Shown here one piece after another: positions 17,092 through 64,000 of a stretch of DNA of 64,000 nucleotides. The position numbers were made by a program, and so were the translations under genes. The DNA comes from a virus: the IMG/VR virus record IMGVR_UViG_3300044846_003008; one strand, given 5' to 3'. The notes below the pieces were generated by a model that made no database searches, was not told where the DNA came from, and saw only the letters and a list, made by a program, of their open reading frames with translations. Numbering within the stretch: the first letter of the stretch is position 1; every line of letters starts with the position of its first letter.

Positions 17092-18596
17092 TAACCATAA
17101 TTTATTCAACAAATAAAGATAAAGAATACAACGATAAGTTTAATGACCACCTAGTATTAACATCTGGACTTCAATGGGTACAGGTTTTACCTTATGTAAA
17201 TCATAACGAATACTCATTATCCGAACTTTATAATAAAGGAATAAAAGAGGCCAAGTATGATATTGTAGTTTGTTGTCATAATGATATTAAACTTGAGAAA
17301 AATTGGGGTAAAAAACTTTTGGAGGACTTTTCTAATAATCCTGATTACGGGATAATTGGAAAGGCCGGTGGGTGTCATTTCCCAAAGTCAGGAATATATT
17401 GGGAAAATATGCAACAAATTATGGTGGGTCAAGTTTATCATCACCCTGAAGGTTCTAATAAGTGGTTAAGTAAATATTCACCTAAATTACCATTTATAGT
17501 TCCTGTTGTAACAATTGATGGGTTATTCATATCTTTTGATAAAACAAAGATAAAACATAAATTTGATGAAACTATCGGTAGATTCCATTTCTATGACCAT
17601 TTATTTTGTATTCCAAATTATTTAGACGGTGTTAAGATTGGTGTTACCACATCATTCGAAATTACCCATCAATCAGTTGGGAGACCAAATCAGGAGTTTT
17701 ACGATAGTCGTGATTTGTTCGTTAAAAAATATGGGGATAAATTACCTTTAGATTTAAAACCAACGGAAATATTTGCACCTACCATAAAAGAAAAACCAAT
17801 TAAAAATATTGGTAAAATGGCGGTTATTATTCCGACTAAAAGTAAATTGGATTTATTATTTGACTGTATTGATTCTTTTCACAAAAATTGTAACTCATCA
17901 TTATATGATATTTTTGTTGCAGATACAGGGTCGTCAATTGATGAAAAAAATGAGATTAAAACGAGATATGAAAATACCAATGTTAATCTCATTGAATTTG
18001 ATTATTATAATTTCGCTAAGATTAATAACGAAGTGGTTAGGGATTATATTGGTAATGAATATGAGTTTTTATTATTCTGTAATAACGATATTAAAATAAT
18101 GAACAATGTTGTTTATGGGATGTTAAAAACATTTAAAGAAAAACCAAAATCGGGAACTATTGGTTGTAGATTACATTTTGGTGATAATACGATACAACAC
18201 GATGGTGTTATGTTATATACAAAACCAAATAGTCCTGTTCAGGTCAGTCATTATGGTCTTGGTAATTATTATAACTACACGATTGGTCTCAAATCAGTAC
18301 CTGGGTCGACAGGTGCTTTGTTAGGTATTAGAAGAAATACGTTTATTAAATCGGGTTTATTTAATGAGAAATACACCAATTGTTTTGAAGATGTTGAACT
18401 AAATTTAAAATTATTAACATTAGGGTTTGAAAATATATTTGACGGGTCATTAGTTGCTTATCATTACGAAAGTCAAACAAGAAATGAAAACCCTGACAAT
18501 CTAACAACATTATTAAATGACTATAATTATAATTTATTCCCATTTATTAGTGAGAATGTGAGTACTATTAAAAAGTACGTAATCTCAGTTCAATAA
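17088..18596 (+). CDS. Two-domain GT-A (GT2-like) glycosyltransferase
   Basis: CHNDI in the first domain; VIIPTK, LFCNNDI, FEDVE and HYESQTR in the second. Confidence 0.8.
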   Translation: MITIIYSTNKDKEYNDKFNDHLVLTSGLQWVQVLPYVNHNEYSLSELYNKGIKEAKYDIVVCCHNDIKLEKNWGKKLLEDFSNNPDYGIIGKAGGCHFPKSGIYWENMQQIMVGQVYHHPEGSNKWLSKYSPKLPFIVPVVTIDGLFISFDKTKIKHKFDETIGRFHFYDHLFCIPNYLDGVKIGVTTSFEITHQSVGRPNQEFYDSRDLFVKKYGDKLPLDLKPTEIFAPTIKEKPIKNIGKMAVIIPTKSKLDLLFDCIDSFHKNCNSSLYDIFVADTGSSIDEKNEIKTRYENTNVNLIEFDYYNFAKINNEVVRDYIGNEYEFLLFCNNDIKIMNNVVYGMLKTFKEKPKSGTIGCRLHFGDNTIQHDGVMLYTKPNSPVQVSHYGLGNYYNYTIGLKSVPGSTGALLGIRRNTFIKSGLFNEKYTNCFEDVELNLKLLTLGFENIFDGSLVAYHYESQTRNENPDNLTTLLNDYNYNLFPFISENVSTIKKYVISVQ

Positions 18597-51575: not shown

Positions 51576-51963
51576 GGGGATAACTTGGAATTGACTGGCA
51601 TTGTTAATTATTCGGGGCACGCAGTGAGAAGATTCCTATCACTTAAATCTATGGTATCAAATTACAAACGGCAACGTTTTAAACAAAATGGCGACTATCG
51701 GATTAATCCGTGAAGACGCTGCAGTAGCTGCCTAAGCTTAGGAAGACACTAACGGGTCGATGGACATATAACCTAGGAACAGAAGTCTTTACAAAGGTGG
51801 AAAAATGACTGAACCCGAAATCGAGTCATTCATTGGTTGTTAGTTTACGATGATGAAGAACAAACTTACTATTTTTGGAACATTAGAAAATGTTATCCTA
51901 AGCGTGTAGTCCTTAGTCTTTAAGGTGTACAACACGAGGGTTCGACTCCCTCTATCTCCACCA
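51576..51963 (+). ncRNA. ssrA: tmRNA
   Basis: 5' GGGGATA pairs with 3' TATCTCC-A-CCA including G3:U70; T-arm GAGGG-TTCGACT-CCCTC; tag ORF 51670-51735 GNVLNKMATIGLIREDAAVAA*. Confidence 0.93.
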
Positions 51964-52757: not shown

Positions 52758-52830
52758 TAGCAACGGACGGGAATCGAACCTGTTTGGGTCGGCTTATGAG
52801 ACCGATGAGATACCTTACCTCCCCCCTGCT
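52758..52830 (-). tRNA. Atypical tRNA-Met(CAT)
   Basis: TCGGT-CTCATAA-GCCGA anticodon arm, TTCGATT T-loop; bulged acceptor stem and G8. Confidence 0.7.
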
Positions 52831-52847
52831 ATATTTGGCTTTAAAAA

Positions 52848-53722
52848 AGGCTGAGATTATACCTGTTATTGAGAACCTTTGGAAGGATTATTGTTTCCCT
52901 TCGTATCCACTTTCTTTTGAAAAGTATTCCTCAGTGTCGGTTTTTTAGGTGAACCACTCCTTGAGACATCAACTACTCTCTCATTACTCAACTCTCTTCG
53001 AGAATGCCTCCCCGACTAATCCTTGCGAGATTAGAGGTTTTTGGTAAGAATACATTCAGACTTGCGGTCATCCTGTGCAATGAACAACTCATTACTATGT
53101 AGACACCTTTCGTTGATATCTGACGGACACTTTTGCTTTAGTTTAAATTTTAATTTTTACATTAACCTAGTAAAATAAAGTTTTTCGTGTTGTGGATTAA
53201 TCAAAGTAGTGGTCCGTCTTTCAGATTCGTCGTCTTTTGAACAACGAAATACCAAACTACTCTGTGAAGTATCCCTACCTCAATATTTTAAGATTACTTC
53301 GAAACAATTCTTTTGGTAAAGAATCATCAAGGAAAATTTCAGCACCACCTGTTTGTTTTCATACCTTTCGGTTTTAAGCCACCTCTTATAATGGAAGTCG
53401 TAATTGTAACGTTGGATACGATACTTCTTACATAAATCCTACGAGTTATTCCTATTAGAGTTCCCTCCTCAATCTGATGACCCACATCACCAAATCATAT
53501 AACCACTTTCTCTACATCGTTGACCTCGATACTAAAGGTTATACGGTATCCCGCTTGTGTACTCGACCTCGGTTTCCCAAGACGCAGACCCGTTACACTT
53601 GGGGGTCCACTTTATCCTACTTTCGTAGTTTATTTAATGACCATACACGGCCAATATCTTTATCAGTTTGTTACTCAAAATCAACCACAAGGGTCTCATC
53701 ATCAAACATTCTGAACGGATAA
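52848..53722 (-). ncRNA. Large (~875 nt) structured RNA, GOLLD-like
   Basis: Non-coding, relatively GC-rich; GNRA-capped hairpins on the minus strand; 3' end ACUGAGGA...AGGU-AUAAUCUCA-GCCU; tRNA-adjacent in a phage. Family recognised from memory, not searched. Confidence 0.7.
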
Positions 53723-57143: not shown

Positions 57144-58085
57144 CTAAATTCTTTTAATAATCGTACCGTCTGAATAGTGAAAAAATTTCATTCCAGGTGA
57201 ATCTACCGTAACGTCTTGACCTAATGTGTTTGTTATCTTAATTAATTCGGGGGTGAATTTACGATTATCAATTGATATGATATTAAAATCTTTTGATTTA
57301 CCATCATAATCGGTTTGCGTTAAATAATAATATGAAATATCATTAAAATAACCCCTCTCTAAGTATTGGTAAAAATGCGTAAATGATGAGGTTCCGACAC
57401 CATCAACTTTTGCGACTTCCACCCAATTAATTGGGTAATATGTTTTAAAAATTGTGAAGAATTGATTATTAGTTTCTGTGGCAGTCGCCCATTCAAGTAA
57501 ATTACCATCCTCAGTTTGTTTACCCTTGAAGTATAATAATTCAATAGGTAAACCTACAGGTTCAGATTCAAAGATTGATAAGTCATCTAAATATGCTGAT
57601 GTTGGACCACCATAGATTGTGTTAGTCCATATTTGAAAATAACCCGACCCTGCGTATGTGGATAATATAGTAAACGACCATTGATACCAAGTATTCCAAT
57701 TTGAATTACAACTTGAGTTAGTTTGATTATCAGTTGTTAATAATGTTGTTTGATTTGGTAACTCATTAGTGTTTACAACTACCGAACAAACACGTTTTGT
57801 GTAAAAGGTTATTGTGTAATTATAATTCGCTTTAAAAGTAATAGGAATATAAATATAAATTGAATTACCATTTGCCGCGGATGAAAATCTTGAGGAATAC
57901 TTCGTCGCGTCAAAAACATTACGATAATTTCCTGTGGCACTTTCATTCCTGTTAAAGACCCAAACATTTGAAGTTGATGACCATCCTGATGGTGATACAC
58001 TTGAGAAGTGTTGGTCAACAAGATAAGTCTGTCCATAAGTGAATATAGACAGACTTAACATTAAGATATTAATTAAAGTTTTCAT
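57144..58085 (-). CDS. Secreted protein with signal peptide and T9SS-like C-terminal domain
   Basis: MKTLINILMLSLSIFTYG|Q; LPIELLYF...L.W.TATE.NN..F...YYYLTQTDYDG; C-terminus ITNTLGQ....YSDGTIIKRI. Confidence 0.7.
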   Translation of the reverse strand: MKTLINILMLSLSIFTYGQTYLVDQHFSSVSPSGWSSTSNVWVFNRNESATGNYRNVFDATKYSSRFSSAANGNSIYIYIPITFKANYNYTITFYTKRVCSVVVNTNELPNQTTLLTTDNQTNSSCNSNWNTWYQWSFTILSTYAGSGYFQIWTNTIYGGPTSAYLDDLSIFESEPVGLPIELLYFKGKQTEDGNLLEWATATETNNQFFTIFKTYYPINWVEVAKVDGVGTSSFTHFYQYLERGYFNDISYYYLTQTDYDGKSKDFNIISIDNRKFTPELIKITNTLGQDVTVDSPGMKFFHYSDGTIIKRI

Positions 58086-59116
58086 TTCTCATTTAATAAG
58101 AATTTATTAGAGATTGCTTTGAAACTGATTTTTCTGTCGTGTGAACGAATAACTAGCCCCTCTCTTTCGGTTTTAATATTTAAAACAGACTTACCTTCAG
58201 CCATTAACAATAATTCATCAATTGTTTCAGGTAATGTAAAATCTAAGTCGAGAATTGGAACCGTTTTCACTTCCAAAATTTTAGTCAATTCAAGCAAATC
58301 ATCTAACGATAAATAGTCGTACTTGTCAATATCAAATCCGTTGAATATTCTAACTGTTTGACCAATACGTTGGTAAGGATTTCCTTGAATTCCTTCACCG
58401 ATGATTTCACCTTGTACCGCAAGGTTTTTCTCCAATCCAACCAACTTATCACGTAATCCTGATTCGATTGCGAATTTCCACATAGAATTGTTCACATCCT
58501 CCAATAAATCCAAGTTTCTTGAACACACTCCAAATACCCCGTCTTTAACGTAGTAAGTTACACTAGAACCATCTAATTTCTCAGTTACGTAGAATTTCGC
58601 CAATTTGTAGATAGGGTATTCTTTTGTCAAGTTTTGAACTCTTTCTTCATCAGTTTTCTTTAAAAATGAAGGAAAATTACCTTTAACTTGTCCTGCCAAT
58701 TGTGCGGGAATTGGTGGTTCGTATTTCACAATGTTTAACATTTCTGTTACGTCAAGACCTTCAAACCAACCCATATCCATATTCGGTGTGTTTCTTTTGA
58801 AAACATCGTAAGCCTCTTTAAGGGGTAAGATTAACCCTTGAGAGATTTGACCTCGTAATCTGATTGTTTTCAAACGGAAACCTTCATTACCGTCCGCCAT
58901 TTTTTTGTATGAACTCTTACGTAAAAATTCAAACTCAGGTTCAATAGGTAAAAATGAGTCAACCTCACAGTAAACAATTAAGTCACCTACTTTATGATTT
59001 ACATCTTTAGCAACAACAACTTTCCATCCGTCAATTGTTGCCAATTCAATTTTGTCAGCCCCTTCGATTGGACTTAAATCAGAAATTTGTCTAATACTCG
59101 CTAATTTTCTTTCCAT
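58082..59116 (-). CDS. RNA ligase, DRB0094/Rnl2-like family
   Basis: RKLASIRQI..L.PIEGADKIE, TEKLDGSS, QGEIIGEGIQGN, REGLV, FKAISNKFLL. Confidence 0.88.
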   Translation of the reverse strand: MERKLASIRQISDLSPIEGADKIELATIDGWKVVVAKDVNHKVGDLIVYCEVDSFLPIEPEFEFLRKSSYKKMADGNEGFRLKTIRLRGQISQGLILPLKEAYDVFKRNTPNMDMGWFEGLDVTEMLNIVKYEPPIPAQLAGQVKGNFPSFLKKTDEERVQNLTKEYPIYKLAKFYVTEKLDGSSVTYYVKDGVFGVCSRNLDLLEDVNNSMWKFAIESGLRDKLVGLEKNLAVQGEIIGEGIQGNPYQRIGQTVRIFNGFDIDKYDYLSLDDLLELTKILEVKTVPILDLDFTLPETIDELLLMAEGKSVLNIKTEREGLVIRSHDRKISFKAISNKFLLNEK

Positions 59117-59274
59117 TTGTTCTTGTGTTAAATAATTTTATATATTTTATTCTCAATGTTTTGTATTGTCTTATCATAAACTGACTTATATTGTCAGGGT
59201 TTGATGAATGTAATTCAATCATATAATTGGTTGACCTTACCTCATCCAATAAATCGAGTAATTCATATTTTTCC
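59091..59274 (-). CDS. Small hypothetical protein
   Basis: ORF fills the gap in the operon; start approximate (MEKYEL). Confidence 0.5.
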
Positions 59275-59625
59275 ATCGTCAATTCTTTTAACCATTTCCG
59301 ATTGTGTGTATACTTCCTCACCCGATTCAAATTTAATCAATAAATCTAAATTCACAACTTTATTATCCATATATTTTTCAGTGTAAGTGTAATTACAATT
59401 TGTTTGAATAACAATACCGTGGTTTTGAAATAATTTATCAATCCCTGACCGGTGTTTTAACGTGTCTTTATCAATGTTATAACTACCATCCCAAATCAAG
59501 ACTCTATCACCTACATCTTTAATTCTATCGTCTTTATGTTGTTTGATATACTCTTGTATTTCTTTTAACATATTAACCGATTCTAAGAATAAATCATCTT
59601 GATTATTTTCGTCGTAAGTTTCCAT
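59263..59625 (-). CDS. Hypothetical protein
   Basis: 120-aa ORF. Confidence 0.7.
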   Translation of the reverse strand: METYDENNQDDLFLESVNMLKEIQEYIKQHKDDRIKDVGDRVLIWDGSYNIDKDTLKHRSGIDKLFQNHGIVIQTNCNYTYTEKYMDNKVVNLDLLIKFESGEEVYTQSEMVKRIDDGKI

Positions 59626-59630
59626 AATAA

Positions 59631-60299
59631 TTAACCAATAACATTTAACATTTCATCAGTGTGGTGGTCCTTTTCAATCTCAGAATGAATTGGTTGTCTA
59701 TCTAACAATGGAACCAACTCTCCCATAAGATTGTATGGTCTAAACTCTAAATGACCATCAATACCAGCATCAATTCTTCTCCCTTTTCCTAATCTTCTAT
59801 TGTTAGGTAAGTGACAGTGACCGTGTATGTGCATCGCACCTTTACGTAAGTTATTCCACGAGTCAATTGGGTAGTGCATCAATTGAATTTCTCTTTTCCC
59901 AATCTTCAATGTGTTGTAGTGAGAAACACTCAAAAACAATTCTTGAACGTTGTCTTTATTATTCTCAATGTGGTGGTCGTGATTCCCCAAGATTAAGTGT
60001 ATGTTTTTACATACAACTCTATCTCTGAATTTTCGGATTGACTCGAACCCACCAAAAGACCAATCACCCAAGTGAATTAAGATATCGTCTTCTTTAACGT
60101 ATTGGTTAATGTTATTAACTATTGTGTCATTCATTAAATCAAGATTACTGAAGTCACGAGTTTCTTTAATTGGAATTGAACCGTCAGGTTTTCTCCAACT
60201 TGTTGTACCACGACAAATGTTTGTGTGATTGTAGTGAGTATCTGATGTTACCCAAACATTTGGGTATTTTCCTTGTTTATTTGCGTTAATTTTAATCAT
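59631..60299 (-). CDS. Calcineurin-like metallophosphoesterase
   Basis: SDTH, HLGD, GNHD, MHYP, HGHCH. Confidence 0.88.
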   Translation of the reverse strand: MIKINANKQGKYPNVWVTSDTHYNHTNICRGTTSWRKPDGSIPIKETRDFSNLDLMNDTIVNNINQYVKEDDILIHLGDWSFGGFESIRKFRDRVVCKNIHLILGNHDHHIENNKDNVQELFLSVSHYNTLKIGKREIQLMHYPIDSWNNLRKGAMHIHGHCHLPNNRRLGKGRRIDAGIDGHLEFRPYNLMGELVPLLDRQPIHSEIEKDHHTDEMLNVIG

Positions 60300-61299: not shown

Positions 61300-61647
61300 T
61301 CAATATCTATGAACGTACACTATCAATCCAAGTTTTTTTGATGTGTCTATCATATTTTTAGTCCCTTTACTCTCACCGTCCCAAAACGCAATTAACATAT
61401 CACCATATTCGGCCATTTGTCTATTACGGATGTGACCGGCACCTTTACCGTGTTTATTCCAATCGGCAGGAAATACCTTTAAATCAAAACCCTTTTCTTT
61501 GGAATATTGTTCACCCAATTTATCGGTTCCTCTAGCACCACCACTAACAATTTCAGGTGTGGTAAGTGTTGGTATAACACCGTCACATATCTCACGTAGT
61601 AATTCATAATCGTTGAATTCTCTACCACCAGCAATAATGACTTTCAT
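61300..61647 (-). CDS. SLOG-family (YspA/DUF2493-like) protein
   Basis: VIIAGGREF, IVSGGARGTD, ADWNKHGKGAG.IRN.QM, AFWDGESKGT..MI. Confidence 0.8.
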   Translation of the reverse strand: MKVIIAGGREFNDYELLREICDGVIPTLTTPEIVSGGARGTDKLGEQYSKEKGFDLKVFPADWNKHGKGAGHIRNRQMAEYGDMLIAFWDGESKGTKNMIDTSKKLGLIVYVHRY

Positions 61648-61874
61648 TATCTGAAGAAATATTTTCTTGAATAATACCCAAGGGTGTTTATGTCAATATC
61701 ATCATTATTAATGAACATAAATCCTTGATATTGGTCGGCGATATGTAACGCACTTTCAATCATAGTACAAATACCAATTTTAAAATCTTTGGTTGCGATT
61801 TCATCGGTTCTTGATAATTGAAGGTTTGCGTAATCAACCATATCTTTAACTGAAACTGTTTTTCTTTTTGCCAT
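61647..61874 (-). CDS. Hypothetical protein
   Basis: 75-aa ORF. Confidence 0.65.
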   Translation of the reverse strand: MAKRKTVSVKDMVDYANLQLSRTDEIATKDFKIGICTMIESALHIADQYQGFMFINNDDIDINTLGYYSRKYFFR

Positions 61875-61941
61875 AACATTAAGTTTTATGTTACGAAGAT
61901 ATATAAATTTTGGGGAAAAACATACGGAATAGAAAAAAAAG

Positions 61942-62048
61942 TTATTAATACAGGATTCGAACCTGTGAGTCCCCGTGTATAGGTATCATACATACCACAT
62001 TCCCGGACTTTATGTATGCTCAACCTTAAGCCACTCGGTCAATTAATT
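61942..62048 (-). ncRNA. tRNA-like RNA without a recognisable anticodon loop
   Basis: D-arm ACCGAGTGGCTTAAGGT and T-arm ACAGG-TTCGAAT-CCTGT intact; all-AU acceptor stem; ~56-nt centre. Confidence 0.55.
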
Positions 62049-62051
62049 AAC

Positions 62052-62259
62052 CACCCCTGAGATTACGGGGTGTAGATGTCCTCAGTTTTTCTTATACAAA
62101 ACCCAACGCGTCTTACCGCTTAAAAATCAACCATTACGTCGGAGTGAGGATGGTGTTCCACACTATTAGCCCAACGACCCCCTTTACAAATCCTAATGAG
62201 GTATCAGATATATCATTGTTTAAGTAACGATACCAAATCTAGTGAGTTTCTCGAACTCA
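62052..62259 (-). ncRNA. Candidate ~210-nt structured RNA sharing the 3' module of the GOLLD-like RNA
   Basis: Helices UGAGUU/AACUCA, GGUAUC/GAUACC, GCG/CGC; terminal CACCCC-GUAAUCUCA-GGGGUG preceded by ACUGAGGA. Confidence 0.6.
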
Positions 62260-62262
62260 TTG

Positions 62263-62337
62263 TGGAGACAGTGGGAATCGAACCCACCACACGGTGATTG
62301 CAAATCATCATCGCCACGCCTTGGAACATTTGCCCCC
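62263..62337 (-). tRNA. tRNA-Cys(GCA), atypical
   Basis: GGGGGCA/TGTCTCC acceptor, loop TTTGCAA, GTGGG-TTCGATT-CCCAC; A8 and A73. Confidence 0.75.
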
Positions 62338-62342
62338 AAATT

Positions 62343-62444
62343 TAGACAACAGGTAATACTCACATTTATTATTACCTAACTCAACGACCTCTGCAGTTGT
62401 GAATCTGTTTTAAAGGTTTTCCTCGGTGAAGAGTTTGTTGTCTA
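62343..62444 (-). ncRNA. Candidate ~100-nt structured RNA (copy A)
   Basis: Closing helix TAGACAACA/TGTTGTCTA; internal AGGTAATA/TATTACCT hairpin; motifs AACUGCAG and GUUGAGUU. Confidence 0.5.
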
Positions 62445-62449
62445 TTTTT

Positions 62450-62608
62450 TTATTTGAAAGACTTTGATTGGTCCTCCCTATTTAATTCTTTCTCAATGTA
62501 GATATTGACCATATGTATTAGTGTGTCAGAATCAATATCAATTGTTTGACTTTCCTTACTTTCTTTCAGAAACGGAAAGATATTTTTAAAATACTCCTCG
62601 AATTTCAT
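62450..62608 (-). CDS. Small hypothetical protein (52 aa), not in ORF track
   Basis: MKFEEYFKNIFPFLKESKESQTIDIDSDTLIHMVNIYIEKELNREDQSKSFK*. Confidence 0.55.
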   Translation of the reverse strand: MKFEEYFKNIFPFLKESKESQTIDIDSDTLIHMVNIYIEKELNREDQSKSFK

Positions 62609-62612
62609 TTTA

Positions 62613-62945
62613 TTATAACTTTATAAATGTTTCATTTTTGATTGATTTACTAATCCATCTTGCTAATTCAGAACCTCTTATTTCCGAATTGAAAGAAGTT
62701 GTCCCAAGGTCTTCAGATAATGTTGTGACCACATCTGACTCCTTAACTTTCGCACCAACTTCTAATGTTGATACATTATGTGTGACCTTTACATCAACTG
62801 TTGAAATTGGAAACTCGTACATATCACCAAAAACCTCAATCTTGTAATACAAATTACCTGCAATATAGTGACTAAATTTAGCCATTGCTTTAGACTTCAT
62901 TAAGTCTTTTTTAATTTCAGTTTCGTTTAACTCAATTGTAACCAT
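62613..62945 (-). CDS. Hypothetical protein
   Basis: Likely start MVTIELN at 62945. Confidence 0.7.
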   Translation of the reverse strand: MVTIELNETEIKKDLMKSKAMAKFSHYIAGNLYYKIEVFGDMYEFPISTVDVKVTHNVSTLEVGAKVKESDVVTTLSEDLGTTSFNSEIRGSELARWISKSIKNETFIKL

Positions 62946-63252
62946 TTTCCAATTTCCATTTATTATGTAATTCATTTATTGTGTGATAAGGACTACCTAC
63001 ACCTTCATAAATCTCATCAAAACCATTTTCTTTAGTAATAACAGATTCTTCAGCTTTAATTGCCCCCCTATATTTATCCCCGTAACTTCCTTGAACTGTT
63101 TTTGTTGCCGGGTCAATATCACCCCAAGATGCTCTCCAACTTCTTGGTTCAATATATTCTACGAAATATTGTTTACCTGTTTCAGGAAATACAACAATTT
63201 CTTTTCCTGTTTCGTCTCGATTTACTAAGAAATCTCTTTTTACATCTTCCAT
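62932..63252 (-). CDS. Hypothetical protein
   Basis: 106 aa; WGDIDPATK..GSYG.KY.G. Confidence 0.75.
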   Translation of the reverse strand: MEDVKRDFLVNRDETGKEIVVFPETGKQYFVEYIEPRSWRASWGDIDPATKTVQGSYGDKYRGAIKAEESVITKENGFDEIYEGVGSPYHTINELHNKWKLENGYN

Positions 63253-63281
63253 AACTGACTGTTATACTGTTTATTTTATTG

Positions 63282-63354
63282 AGCGGGTGGGGGGAATCGA
63301 ACCCTCGTCCTTAGATTGGAAGTCTAATATAATAAGCCACTATACGACACCCGC
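63282..63354 (-). tRNA. tRNA-Gly(TCC)
   Basis: GCGGGTG/CACCCGC, U73, TTAGA-CTTCCAA-TCTAA. Confidence 0.9.
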
Positions 63355-63360
63355 AATTTG

Positions 63361-63435
63361 GGTAGAATCAGACGCGTTCTGTCTACCGAGACCTCGACGT
63401 TGTACTATGTTTCAAGTCAGAGCGTACCGAGACAC
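63361..63435 (-). ncRNA. Candidate two-hairpin small RNA between tRNAs
   Basis: Hairpins 63393-63422 and 63361-63387; 9-nt direct repeat GUCUCGGUA. Confidence 0.4.
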
Positions 63436-63440
63436 TATTG

Positions 63441-63520
63441 TGAACCTGGAGGGAGTCGAACCCTCAATCCTAAAAATCGCGGCTTAAACACGACGCGTAT
63501 ACCAATTTCGCCACAGGTCC
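63441..63520 (-). tRNA. tRNA-Leu(TAA)
   Basis: GGACCTG/CAGGTTC, A73, loop TTTAAGC, short variable arm. Confidence 0.85.
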
Positions 63521-63526
63521 TTTTTG

Positions 63527-63599
63527 TACCCCTACAGGGATTCTAACCCCGATTAAACCCTTAGAAGGGGTTGGTCCTATACAGTTGAACGATAGGGGC
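63527..63599 (-). tRNA. tRNA-Arg(TCT), divergent
   Basis: AACCC-CTTCTAA-GGGTT; T-loop TTAGAAT; D-loop lacks GG. Confidence 0.75.
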
Positions 63600-63608
63600 G
63601 AATTATTG

Positions 63609-63680
63609 CGGACTATGTAGGATTCGAACCTACGACCTATCCGTTAACAGCGGAGTGCTCTACCACTGAGCTAATAGTCC
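63609..63680 (-). tRNA. tRNA-Asn(GTT)
   Basis: GGACTAT/ATAGTCC, G73, loop CTGTTAA, canonical T-arm. Confidence 0.92.
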
Positions 63681-63692
63681 ATTTAATTGTTG

Positions 63693-63765
63693 AGGTCCCT
63701 AACGGATTCGAACCGTTATCCCTGGGTTACAAAGCCAGAATAATAAGCCATTATACTAAGAGACC
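63693..63765 (-). tRNA. tRNA with TGT anticodon (nominal Thr)
   Basis: GGTCTCT/AGGGACC, loop TTTGTAA, AACGG-TTCGAAT-CCGTT. Confidence 0.75.
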
Positions 63766-63780
63766 AATTAAGAGTGTTAT

Positions 63781-63894
63781 TAATTCGTTTTACCTAAGAC
63801 CGCGAATCCACGTAAAACTCAACTTCACCAATATTTTTACTGCAGTTCCAATATTGTCACATTGCTACTATACTGAACTAATAACTACGAATTA
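63781..63894 (-). ncRNA. Candidate ~115-nt structured RNA (copy B)
   Basis: TAATTCGT/ACGAATTA closing helix; CAATATT/AATATTG and GTTTTAC/GTAAAAC hairpins; motifs AACUGCAG and GUUGAGUU. Confidence 0.5.
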
Positions 63895-63907
63895 CCCATC
63901 ATAATTT

Positions 63908-63981
63908 CACCATCGTTAGGGCTCGAACCTAAAGCTTCCGACTCCACGTCAGATGTGTTGACCAATTTACACCACTAGTTA
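63908..63981 (-). pseudogene. Pseudo-tRNA (loop CGTGGAG; Pro/His-derived)
   Basis: D-, anticodon- and T-arms pair, but the acceptor stem is broken and U33 is missing. Confidence 0.6.
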
Positions 63982-64000
63982 CTTAGATTGACAAATAATT

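Follow-up and report, generated by a model that had tools for sequence, protein, structure and literature searches.

A probable new family of compact, pseudoknotted RNAs in the tRNA arrays of uncultivated phages, distinct from GOLLD

The tRNA arrays of uncultivated phages probably harbor a new family of compact noncoding RNAs, which is present as a single copy, measures about 205-270 nt, and contains several pseudoknots. The representative described here lies on the minus strand of a 64,000-nucleotide stretch of IMG/VR virus record IMGVR_UViG_3300044846_003008 (that whole stretch being referred to below as the window), at positions 62262-62052, where it occupies 208-211 nt and is bounded at both ends by tRNA genes. 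Judged by comparison with its relatives, the element is a structured noncoding RNA with several pseudoknots, conserved in hundreds of contigs from uncultivated phages and metagenomes. It is not a member of the GOLLD family, it is independent of GOLLD, and its family is absent from Rfam 15. An initial annotation of this DNA had predicted a discrete RNA of ~210 nt adjoining tRNAs, and both the covariation and the distribution of the family indicate that the predicted RNA is conserved and structured; the limits then given, 62259-62052, are exactly where helix P1 begins and helix P9 ends. The parts of the locus are as follows.

~62260..62337, minus strand: upstream tRNA-Ala-like gene, with G3:U70, a UGC anticodon loop, and a weak D arm
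62243..62262, minus strand: CAA linker and hairpin P1 (UGAGU/ACUCA) with loop L1 UCGAGAA, the family loop consensus being aaGAGAu
62206..62240, minus strand: second domain, in the window's lineage a long hairpin, AGAU..GUAUCGUU / AAUGAUAU..AUCU
62177..62209, minus strand: hairpin P3 (AUCU/GGAU), whose loop ACCUC is predicted to pair with a downstream GGGGU (PK3)
62130..62175, minus strand: helix P5 (GUUGGG/UCCGAC) around hairpin P6, whose loop L6 ACCA(U) is predicted to pair with AUGGU past an invariant GUA (PK6)
62084..62129, minus strand: UGAU and a U-run, hairpin P7 (GCG-GUAAGA-CGC), and A/U-rich hairpin P8 (GGUUUU/AAAACU), covarying helices
62052..62083, minus strand: linker J8/9 (GAGGACAUCUA) and terminal hairpin P9 (CACCCC/GGGGUG) with loop L9 GUAAUCUCA, the same sequence as loop L27 of GOLLD
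61950..62040, minus strand: downstream tRNA-like element, with a class-II D arm, a T arm, an A/U acceptor, and an irregular middle/anticodon region
52848..53264, minus strand: conserved 3' domain of GOLLD (RF02032, 316 bits, E 1e-89), a comparator that lies outside the small RNA

The two ends that define the RNA, a 5' hairpin UGAGU-nnGAGAn-ACUCA and, ~175 nt away, a terminal hairpin with an NNR-AUCUCA loop, are both found in the window, the former at 62259-62243 and the latter at 62072-62052, and the terminal hairpin reads CACCCC-GUAAUCUCA-GGGGUG on the minus strand, as first noted. CAA lies between the discriminator base of the upstream tRNA-Ala-like gene, whose bounds are 62337-62263, and hairpin P1 of the small RNA. 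Annotated tRNA-Ala genes of Pseudomonas phages are 77-83% identical to this gene, which has an Rfam tmRNA/tRNA-clan match of 25 bits; it falls under the Rfam gathering threshold for tRNA, and in the window ARAGORN calls neither of the tRNA-like genes that flank the small RNA. The downstream tRNA-like element, which begins ~11 nt past P9, scores 15.9 bits with the Rfam tRNA model and is kept in 14 related loci; at this position, other members have ordinary tRNAs. Nine kilobases from the small RNA and on the same strand, the window's GOLLD RNA, confirmed by Rfam (52848-53264, 316 bits), terminates in GGU-AUAAUCUCA-GCC, with tRNA-Met (52759-52832) next to it. The earlier reading that both RNAs sit next to tRNAs also holds, a tRNA or tRNA-like gene lying ~11-15 nt 3' of each.

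Several other features were seen in the window. An element of ~100 nt at 62343-62444 (minus strand), just upstream of the tRNA-Ala-like gene, is kept at ~80-90 bits in eight related loci. At 58082-60299 (minus strand), 2-4 kb downstream of the array, there is an RNA-repair pair consisting of an RNA ligase (phrog_968, E 2.5e-88) and a phosphoesterase (phrog_547), and a GTP-binding-domain protein is encoded at 61300-61647. A full-length tmRNA gene (RF00023, 74.5 bits) lies at 51576-51963 (plus strand), ~0.9 kb from GOLLD and tRNA-Met and on the strand opposite to them. Finally, a third copy of GUAAUCUCA occurs in a short hairpin-like context at 18575-18591 (plus strand); it scores 7.4 bits (E 0.28) with the P9 part of the family covariance model, R2, and is probably due to chance.

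Relatives of the small RNA were collected by synteny and by pattern. With the RNA-ligase gene 3 kb downstream as the anchor, 80 related viral loci were obtained, and a profile search found the small RNA in eight of these. A scan pattern that combined both invariant termini (UGAG-3 nt-GAGA-1 nt-ACUCA, then 160-190 nt, then G-N-AAUCUCA) matched in 102 viral contigs, at least 120 metagenome contigs, and eight genome contigs. When these matches were scored with the profile, at least 165 distinct sequences proved to be true members (at least 60 bits) and 13 were chance matches, among them seven of the eight from prokaryote genomes. Scanning by the 5' hairpin alone gave at least 61 further viral loci, mostly with other variants of the terminal loop. 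The first collection scan, for CTGAGGA followed after a gap by GTAATCTCA, had yielded 116 matches, which were set aside as chance because none had the hairpin. The exact 17-mer of the window's hairpin was not found in IMG/VR. In the GenBank phage collection, the window query matched through the flanking tRNA-Ala only, a consensus-type member matched nothing, and no cultured carrier of the small RNA was found.

In 30 of 31 long contigs there is one copy of the RNA per record, and the remaining contig has a second, weak match to R2. The window's element matches R2, which was built from 78 sequences with the window's own among them, over its full length (109.7 bits, E 2e-38), and it is the only strong match there. 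At the upper end of the family's length range, variants of ~240-270 nt (L427, L448, L459, L475; L429, L452) carry large insertions in the P8 region or the P3 loop. The sole true member among the eight prokaryote genome contigs (L420; JAURFD010000048.1, 711 bases) has two flanking tRNAs and belongs to a Candidatus Nanopelagicales MAG bin; it is probably phage DNA in that bin and provides a weak hint at a host group. GOLLD is known from prophages, whereas only this one of the eight small-RNA matches in prokaryote genome contigs is genuine. At L463:8202-8230, the 5' hairpin (CAAUGAGUAAGAGAUACUCA) occurs alone, with a tRNA gene directly after it and the rest of the RNA absent; this lone hairpin has either been left behind by a deletion or indicates that the hairpin is an independent module.

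The fold was derived by hand, by reading the order of the helices block by block from diverse members, and was tested on an alignment of 83 rows fitted to a model of that structure. It took the place of an earlier covariance model, made from an RNAalifold consensus on a MAFFT alignment, which gave 16 pairs only; a column-wise search for helices on the sequence alignment was unsuccessful in the variable regions. The consensus order is P1, P2 (with PK2), P3 (with PK3), P5 around P6 (with PK6), a U-rich stretch, P7, P8, a conserved linker ending in CUAC, and P9. Covariation supports eight helices and three pseudoknots. In the 83-row alignment, which was fitted to the nested helices and consequently favors them, 47 of the 57 pairs have changed on both sides, the proportion of paired cells is 82%, and the covariation score is 0.373, as compared with 0.144 after shuffling (none of 500 shuffles reaches 0.373) and no more than 0.14 for slid partners. 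The pseudoknot helices lie outside the model, and their pairs show two-sided changes although they are absent from it: all four in PK2 (88% paired), all five in PK3, and three of five in PK6. In most members, the second domain is helix P2 (AGUCUU/AAGACU), whose loop would pair downstream to form PK2; the window's lineage has one long hairpin in place of this P2/PK2 pseudoknot.

The terminal hairpin is 95% paired and has two-sided changes in all seven pairs of P9. Among the relatives found by synteny, its loop is constant and its stem reads CACCCC/GGGGUG, CUCUCC/GGGGAG, UCACCU/AGGUGG, or CACCAA/UUGGUG. The initial annotation had remarked that the terminal stems of the small RNA and GOLLD differ in sequence yet still pair, and it had named a want of homologues or of covariation at this stem as the outcome that would count against it; in fact, more than 160 relatives keep the hairpin, with compensating changes in the stem.

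The position of the RNA relative to tRNA genes is precise: CAA comes directly after the upstream discriminator base, and only a few bases separate the last stem from the next tRNA. By ARAGORN calls, an upstream tRNA ends 2-3 nt before the UGAG in 67 cases, and a downstream tRNA starts 12-15 nt past the loop in 90; in L354, L372, and L303, Rfam tRNA matches abut the element. T-loop motifs are present on either side in ~79% of members, and about one-fifth lack a canonical tRNA T-loop motif on one side. The identities of the flanking tRNAs vary widely among members. A two-piece tmRNA, as might be read from a 20.8-bit tmRNA_permuted match, was rejected on the ground that these flanking tRNAs are not the same in every member. 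No terminator was found within 61500-64000 of the window, and no protein gene is linked consistently to the RNA, the best being common to 24 of 122 loci. Since the element fills the gap between tRNA and tRNA almost to the base, tRNA-processing enzymes probably release it. This proposal draws on the established processing of tRNAs by RNase P and RNase Z: the small RNA would be co-transcribed with the flanking tRNAs, its 5' end would be cut by RNase Z or exonucleases, and its 3' end would be cut by RNase P.

Other elements recur in these arrays. In several (L118:2577-2700, L282, L301, L454), a non-tRNA element that starts with GUGAGAGUAAUCGGUCGAGCC and ends near GGCCGUGACUUU lies directly 3' of the small RNA and looks like a further conserved RNA. 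In L206 and L311, a different recurrent element, running from GCCAACCAAGCUAAACUACGAUACGGG to about GGUCAGGAAAGACUGAC, is found 3' of the small RNA.

It had been postulated that the small RNA and GOLLD share a binding or assembly module, in which the CUCA of the terminal loop pairs with the UGAG of an upstream ACUGAGGA (62086-62079 in the small RNA). This idea survives with changes: the terminal loop is that of GOLLD L27, but the pairing with ACUGAGGA is not supported, and the docking site is likely to be P1/L1 instead, as far as sequence can indicate. ACUGAGGA consists of the last three bases (ACU) of the 3' strand of P8 together with the start of linker J8/9. At this site, the family consensus is ACCGAAAU, and close relatives read ACUGAGAA, ACUGUGAA, or ACCGGAAA; these changes are uncompensated and the loop is unchanged, and thus the UGAG/CUCA pseudoknot is not conserved. 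By reasoning, an H-type pseudoknot of this kind would also be sterically awkward, as nothing would separate the loop strand from the 3' strand of the stem. The GOLLD copy in one relative keeps UGAGGA. Within the window, ACUGAGGA is found five times (1.2 expected), and simple arithmetic gives ~2-3 8-mers shared by chance between a 210-nt and an 850-nt RNA. The second word cited as common to the two RNAs, the 11-mer UGGUUGAUUUU, is indeed present twice, as described (0.25 expected; 3 of 100 shuffles reach 2). It comprises the U-run and, before it, the 3' strand of PK6, and since the PK6 part covaries with loop L6 between members, its identity with the GOLLD 5' domain is only lineage-specific.

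The two ends of the small RNA are its most constant parts. In L9, the core AUCUCA is near-invariant and is preceded by three variable loop bases (GUA, GGA, AUA, CAA, GGG, CGA, and others); the sole substitution seen inside its UCUC is C to U, which would still pair with G. The P1 stem and the GAGA of L1 (mostly GAGAU) are invariant across the members seen, although part of the constancy of P1, L1, and L9 is a matter of ascertainment, having been built into the search patterns; among members found through RNA-ligase synteny, GAGA is kept in eight of eight and the full UGAG stem in seven of eight. GAGAU of L1 is complementary to AUCUC of L9. With GAGAA in its L1, the window's lineage would have four pairs, the fifth being an A-A mismatch without compensation. 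No covariation between L1 and L9 is seen among members, because both loops hardly vary. These sequences make the invariant 5' hairpin P1/L1 (UGAGU-aaGAGAu-ACUCA) the likely docking site of the terminal loop. L9 would then dock on the 5' hairpin of its own RNA, 190 nt upstream, with GAGA(U) pairing to (A)UCUC and with a receptor helix closed by UGAG/CUCA, and this docking would close the fold in the way that L27 of GOLLD does on P23 and J24/26.

In the cryo-EM work on GOLLD, L27 is described as an intramolecular hub that pairs with P23 and J24/26 (PMC12286853); the supplementary files of that paper contain no mention of L27. In GOLLD copies of the same phage group, P23 is UGAGRA...UUCUCA and J24/26 is GUGGAUA, and P1/L1 of the small RNA is UGAGU-AAGAGAUA-CUCA. 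From these short motifs, we infer that P1/L1 may be a compact counterpart of the GOLLD P23-J24/26 receptor. Tentatively, then, the two RNAs might have a portable loop-receptor module in common, consisting of a terminal AAUCUCA loop, with the common loop core (R/N)UAAUCUCA, and a possible receptor in the form of a UGAG/CUCA-closed helix with an internal GAUA.

The invariant complementarity of GAGAU in L1 and AUCUC in L9 could also be used between molecules, joining them head to tail into rings, cages, or filaments. There is precedent for such assembly: the GOLLD and ROOL cages are built via kissing loops (PMC12286853), and RNAs of less than 200 nt, such as the manA motif, have been reported in large assemblies (bioRxiv 10.64898/2026.07.01.735769). 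However, the equivalent loop of GOLLD works within one chain, and sequence alone cannot tell intramolecular from intermolecular pairing. We consider it unlikely that L1 and L9 pair between molecules.

The small RNA resembles GOLLD (RF02032; env-38 cryo-EM, PMC12286853) in being phage-borne, in lying beside tRNA genes and thus in the same genomic niche, in having a complex fold with pseudoknots, and in carrying a short terminal hairpin just before a tRNA. This P27-type hairpin, with its identical loop GUAAUCUCA, is a diagnostic trait of GOLLD found in the small RNA, and the 5' hairpin, with UGAG..GAUA..CUCA, is like a collapsed P23/J24-26. Such features are what might be expected of a miniaturized or degenerate GOLLD, descended from the GOLLD 3' domain, and the initial annotation had in fact suggested a minimal or sibling member of that family. 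However, GOLLD is four times larger and has two domains, and the small RNA lacks both its size (>600-800 nt) and its arrangement of a variable 5' and a conserved 3' domain. Helix order and type differ as well: in place of the P17 long-range helix and P18-P26 that form the GOLLD core, the small RNA has P1-P9 with three H-type pseudoknots, which are not collinear with them, and no helices are in common beyond the terminal hairpin. Moreover, the models of the two RNAs do not cross-match. The GOLLD model (RF02032) finds nothing in the small element at E up to 10 in the window and at E up to 1 in eight other members, its 150-bit threshold not being reached. With filters off, the family profile has no match to GOLLD, and the family covariance model aligns positions 193-209 only, that is, the 17-nt terminal hairpin, at 3.6 bits. 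Membership in the GOLLD family is consequently rejected, and descent from the GOLLD 3' domain is very unlikely.

If the small RNA is not a GOLLD, it might still be the partner of one. In this model, the two RNAs form a two-RNA system, and the shared loop allows the small RNA to attach to the GOLLD cage or to assemble together with it. GOLLD is rare in phages generally, and its presence in 9 of the 31 long contigs with the small RNA looks well above that frequency; where both are present, in these nine contigs, they are on the same strand, in tRNA-rich regions, and 0.8-17 kb apart. However, GOLLD is absent from the other 22 long contigs, and among records at least 90% complete with the small RNA it is found in one of nine and absent from eight (in the largest records, the best 30 first-look candidates were scored). 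ROOL is present in none of the 31. Thus, the small RNA mostly occurs without GOLLD and does not need it, and a two-RNA system as an obligate arrangement, which the earlier annotation had raised, does not hold. In addition, the solved structure of GOLLD shows L27 acting as a hub within one molecule, and a shared phage lineage can account for the co-occurrence. We regard a partnership of the two RNAs as highly improbable. That the resemblance is due to chance and the stretch is a mere tRNA-array spacer has practically no probability, since the 8-mer and 11-mer of the initial annotation are explicable by chance or lineage but conservation in hundreds of contigs, with covariation far above both controls, argues against it.

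Taken together, these results favor the reading given at the outset, that of a separate family of phage tRNA-array RNAs. An earlier description was sought in several places. Against Rfam 15, the window's element has no matching family at an E-value limit of 10, nor do eight other members at a limit of 1, and the full match to a described family that would have removed its novelty is therefore absent; no description of the small RNA was found in the literature. A survey of IMG/VR viral contigs, the same source data as those used here, has reported 8,495 candidate RNAs supported by covariation, some of them tRNA-like (Fremin et al. 2023; PMC10690425). The main text of that paper names no motif that fits the description of the small RNA, and, compared on the basis of this main text alone, the 8,495 unnamed candidates may include the family (PMC10690425). 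ROOL (RF03087) is like the small RNA in being an ornate phage RNA with multiple pseudoknots near tRNA islands, and unlike it in being ~3 times larger, in having no sequence or model match to it, and in not occurring in any of the 31 contigs. By position, the classical analogues of the small RNA are rnaC and rnaD (species 1 and 2) of phage T4, small stable phage RNAs that lie directly beside tRNA genes and are, at ~120-140 nt, shorter than the small RNA. With filters off, R2 finds nothing over rnaC/rnaD in the T4 tRNA region, and elsewhere it gives only two short fragments at less than 5 bits. By analogy with other phage RNAs of tRNA islands, the small RNA probably has a protein-independent role in the cell during infection.

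GOLLD and ROOL are among the largest RNAs of bacteria and phages, and to our knowledge, no function has been assigned to them; the structures of their cages were reportedly solved only in 2025. The family described here adds a separate, far smaller, and abundant phage RNA in the niche of GOLLD, one that keeps the loop central to the GOLLD 3' domain, and it is a well-supported family that Rfam is without. At 210 nt, with three pseudoknots and hundreds of natural variants, it is a tractable object with which to probe what an L27-type loop does. If the portable module is real, the small RNA would serve as a naturally occurring, minimal model for the folding hub of GOLLD; the module could also join separate molecules, into rings or cages made of RNA only or, in phages that encode both RNAs, into assemblies of the small RNA with GOLLD. 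More broadly, the finding opens the question of a common mechanism for tRNA-island RNAs and of why phages devote space in their tRNA arrays to them.
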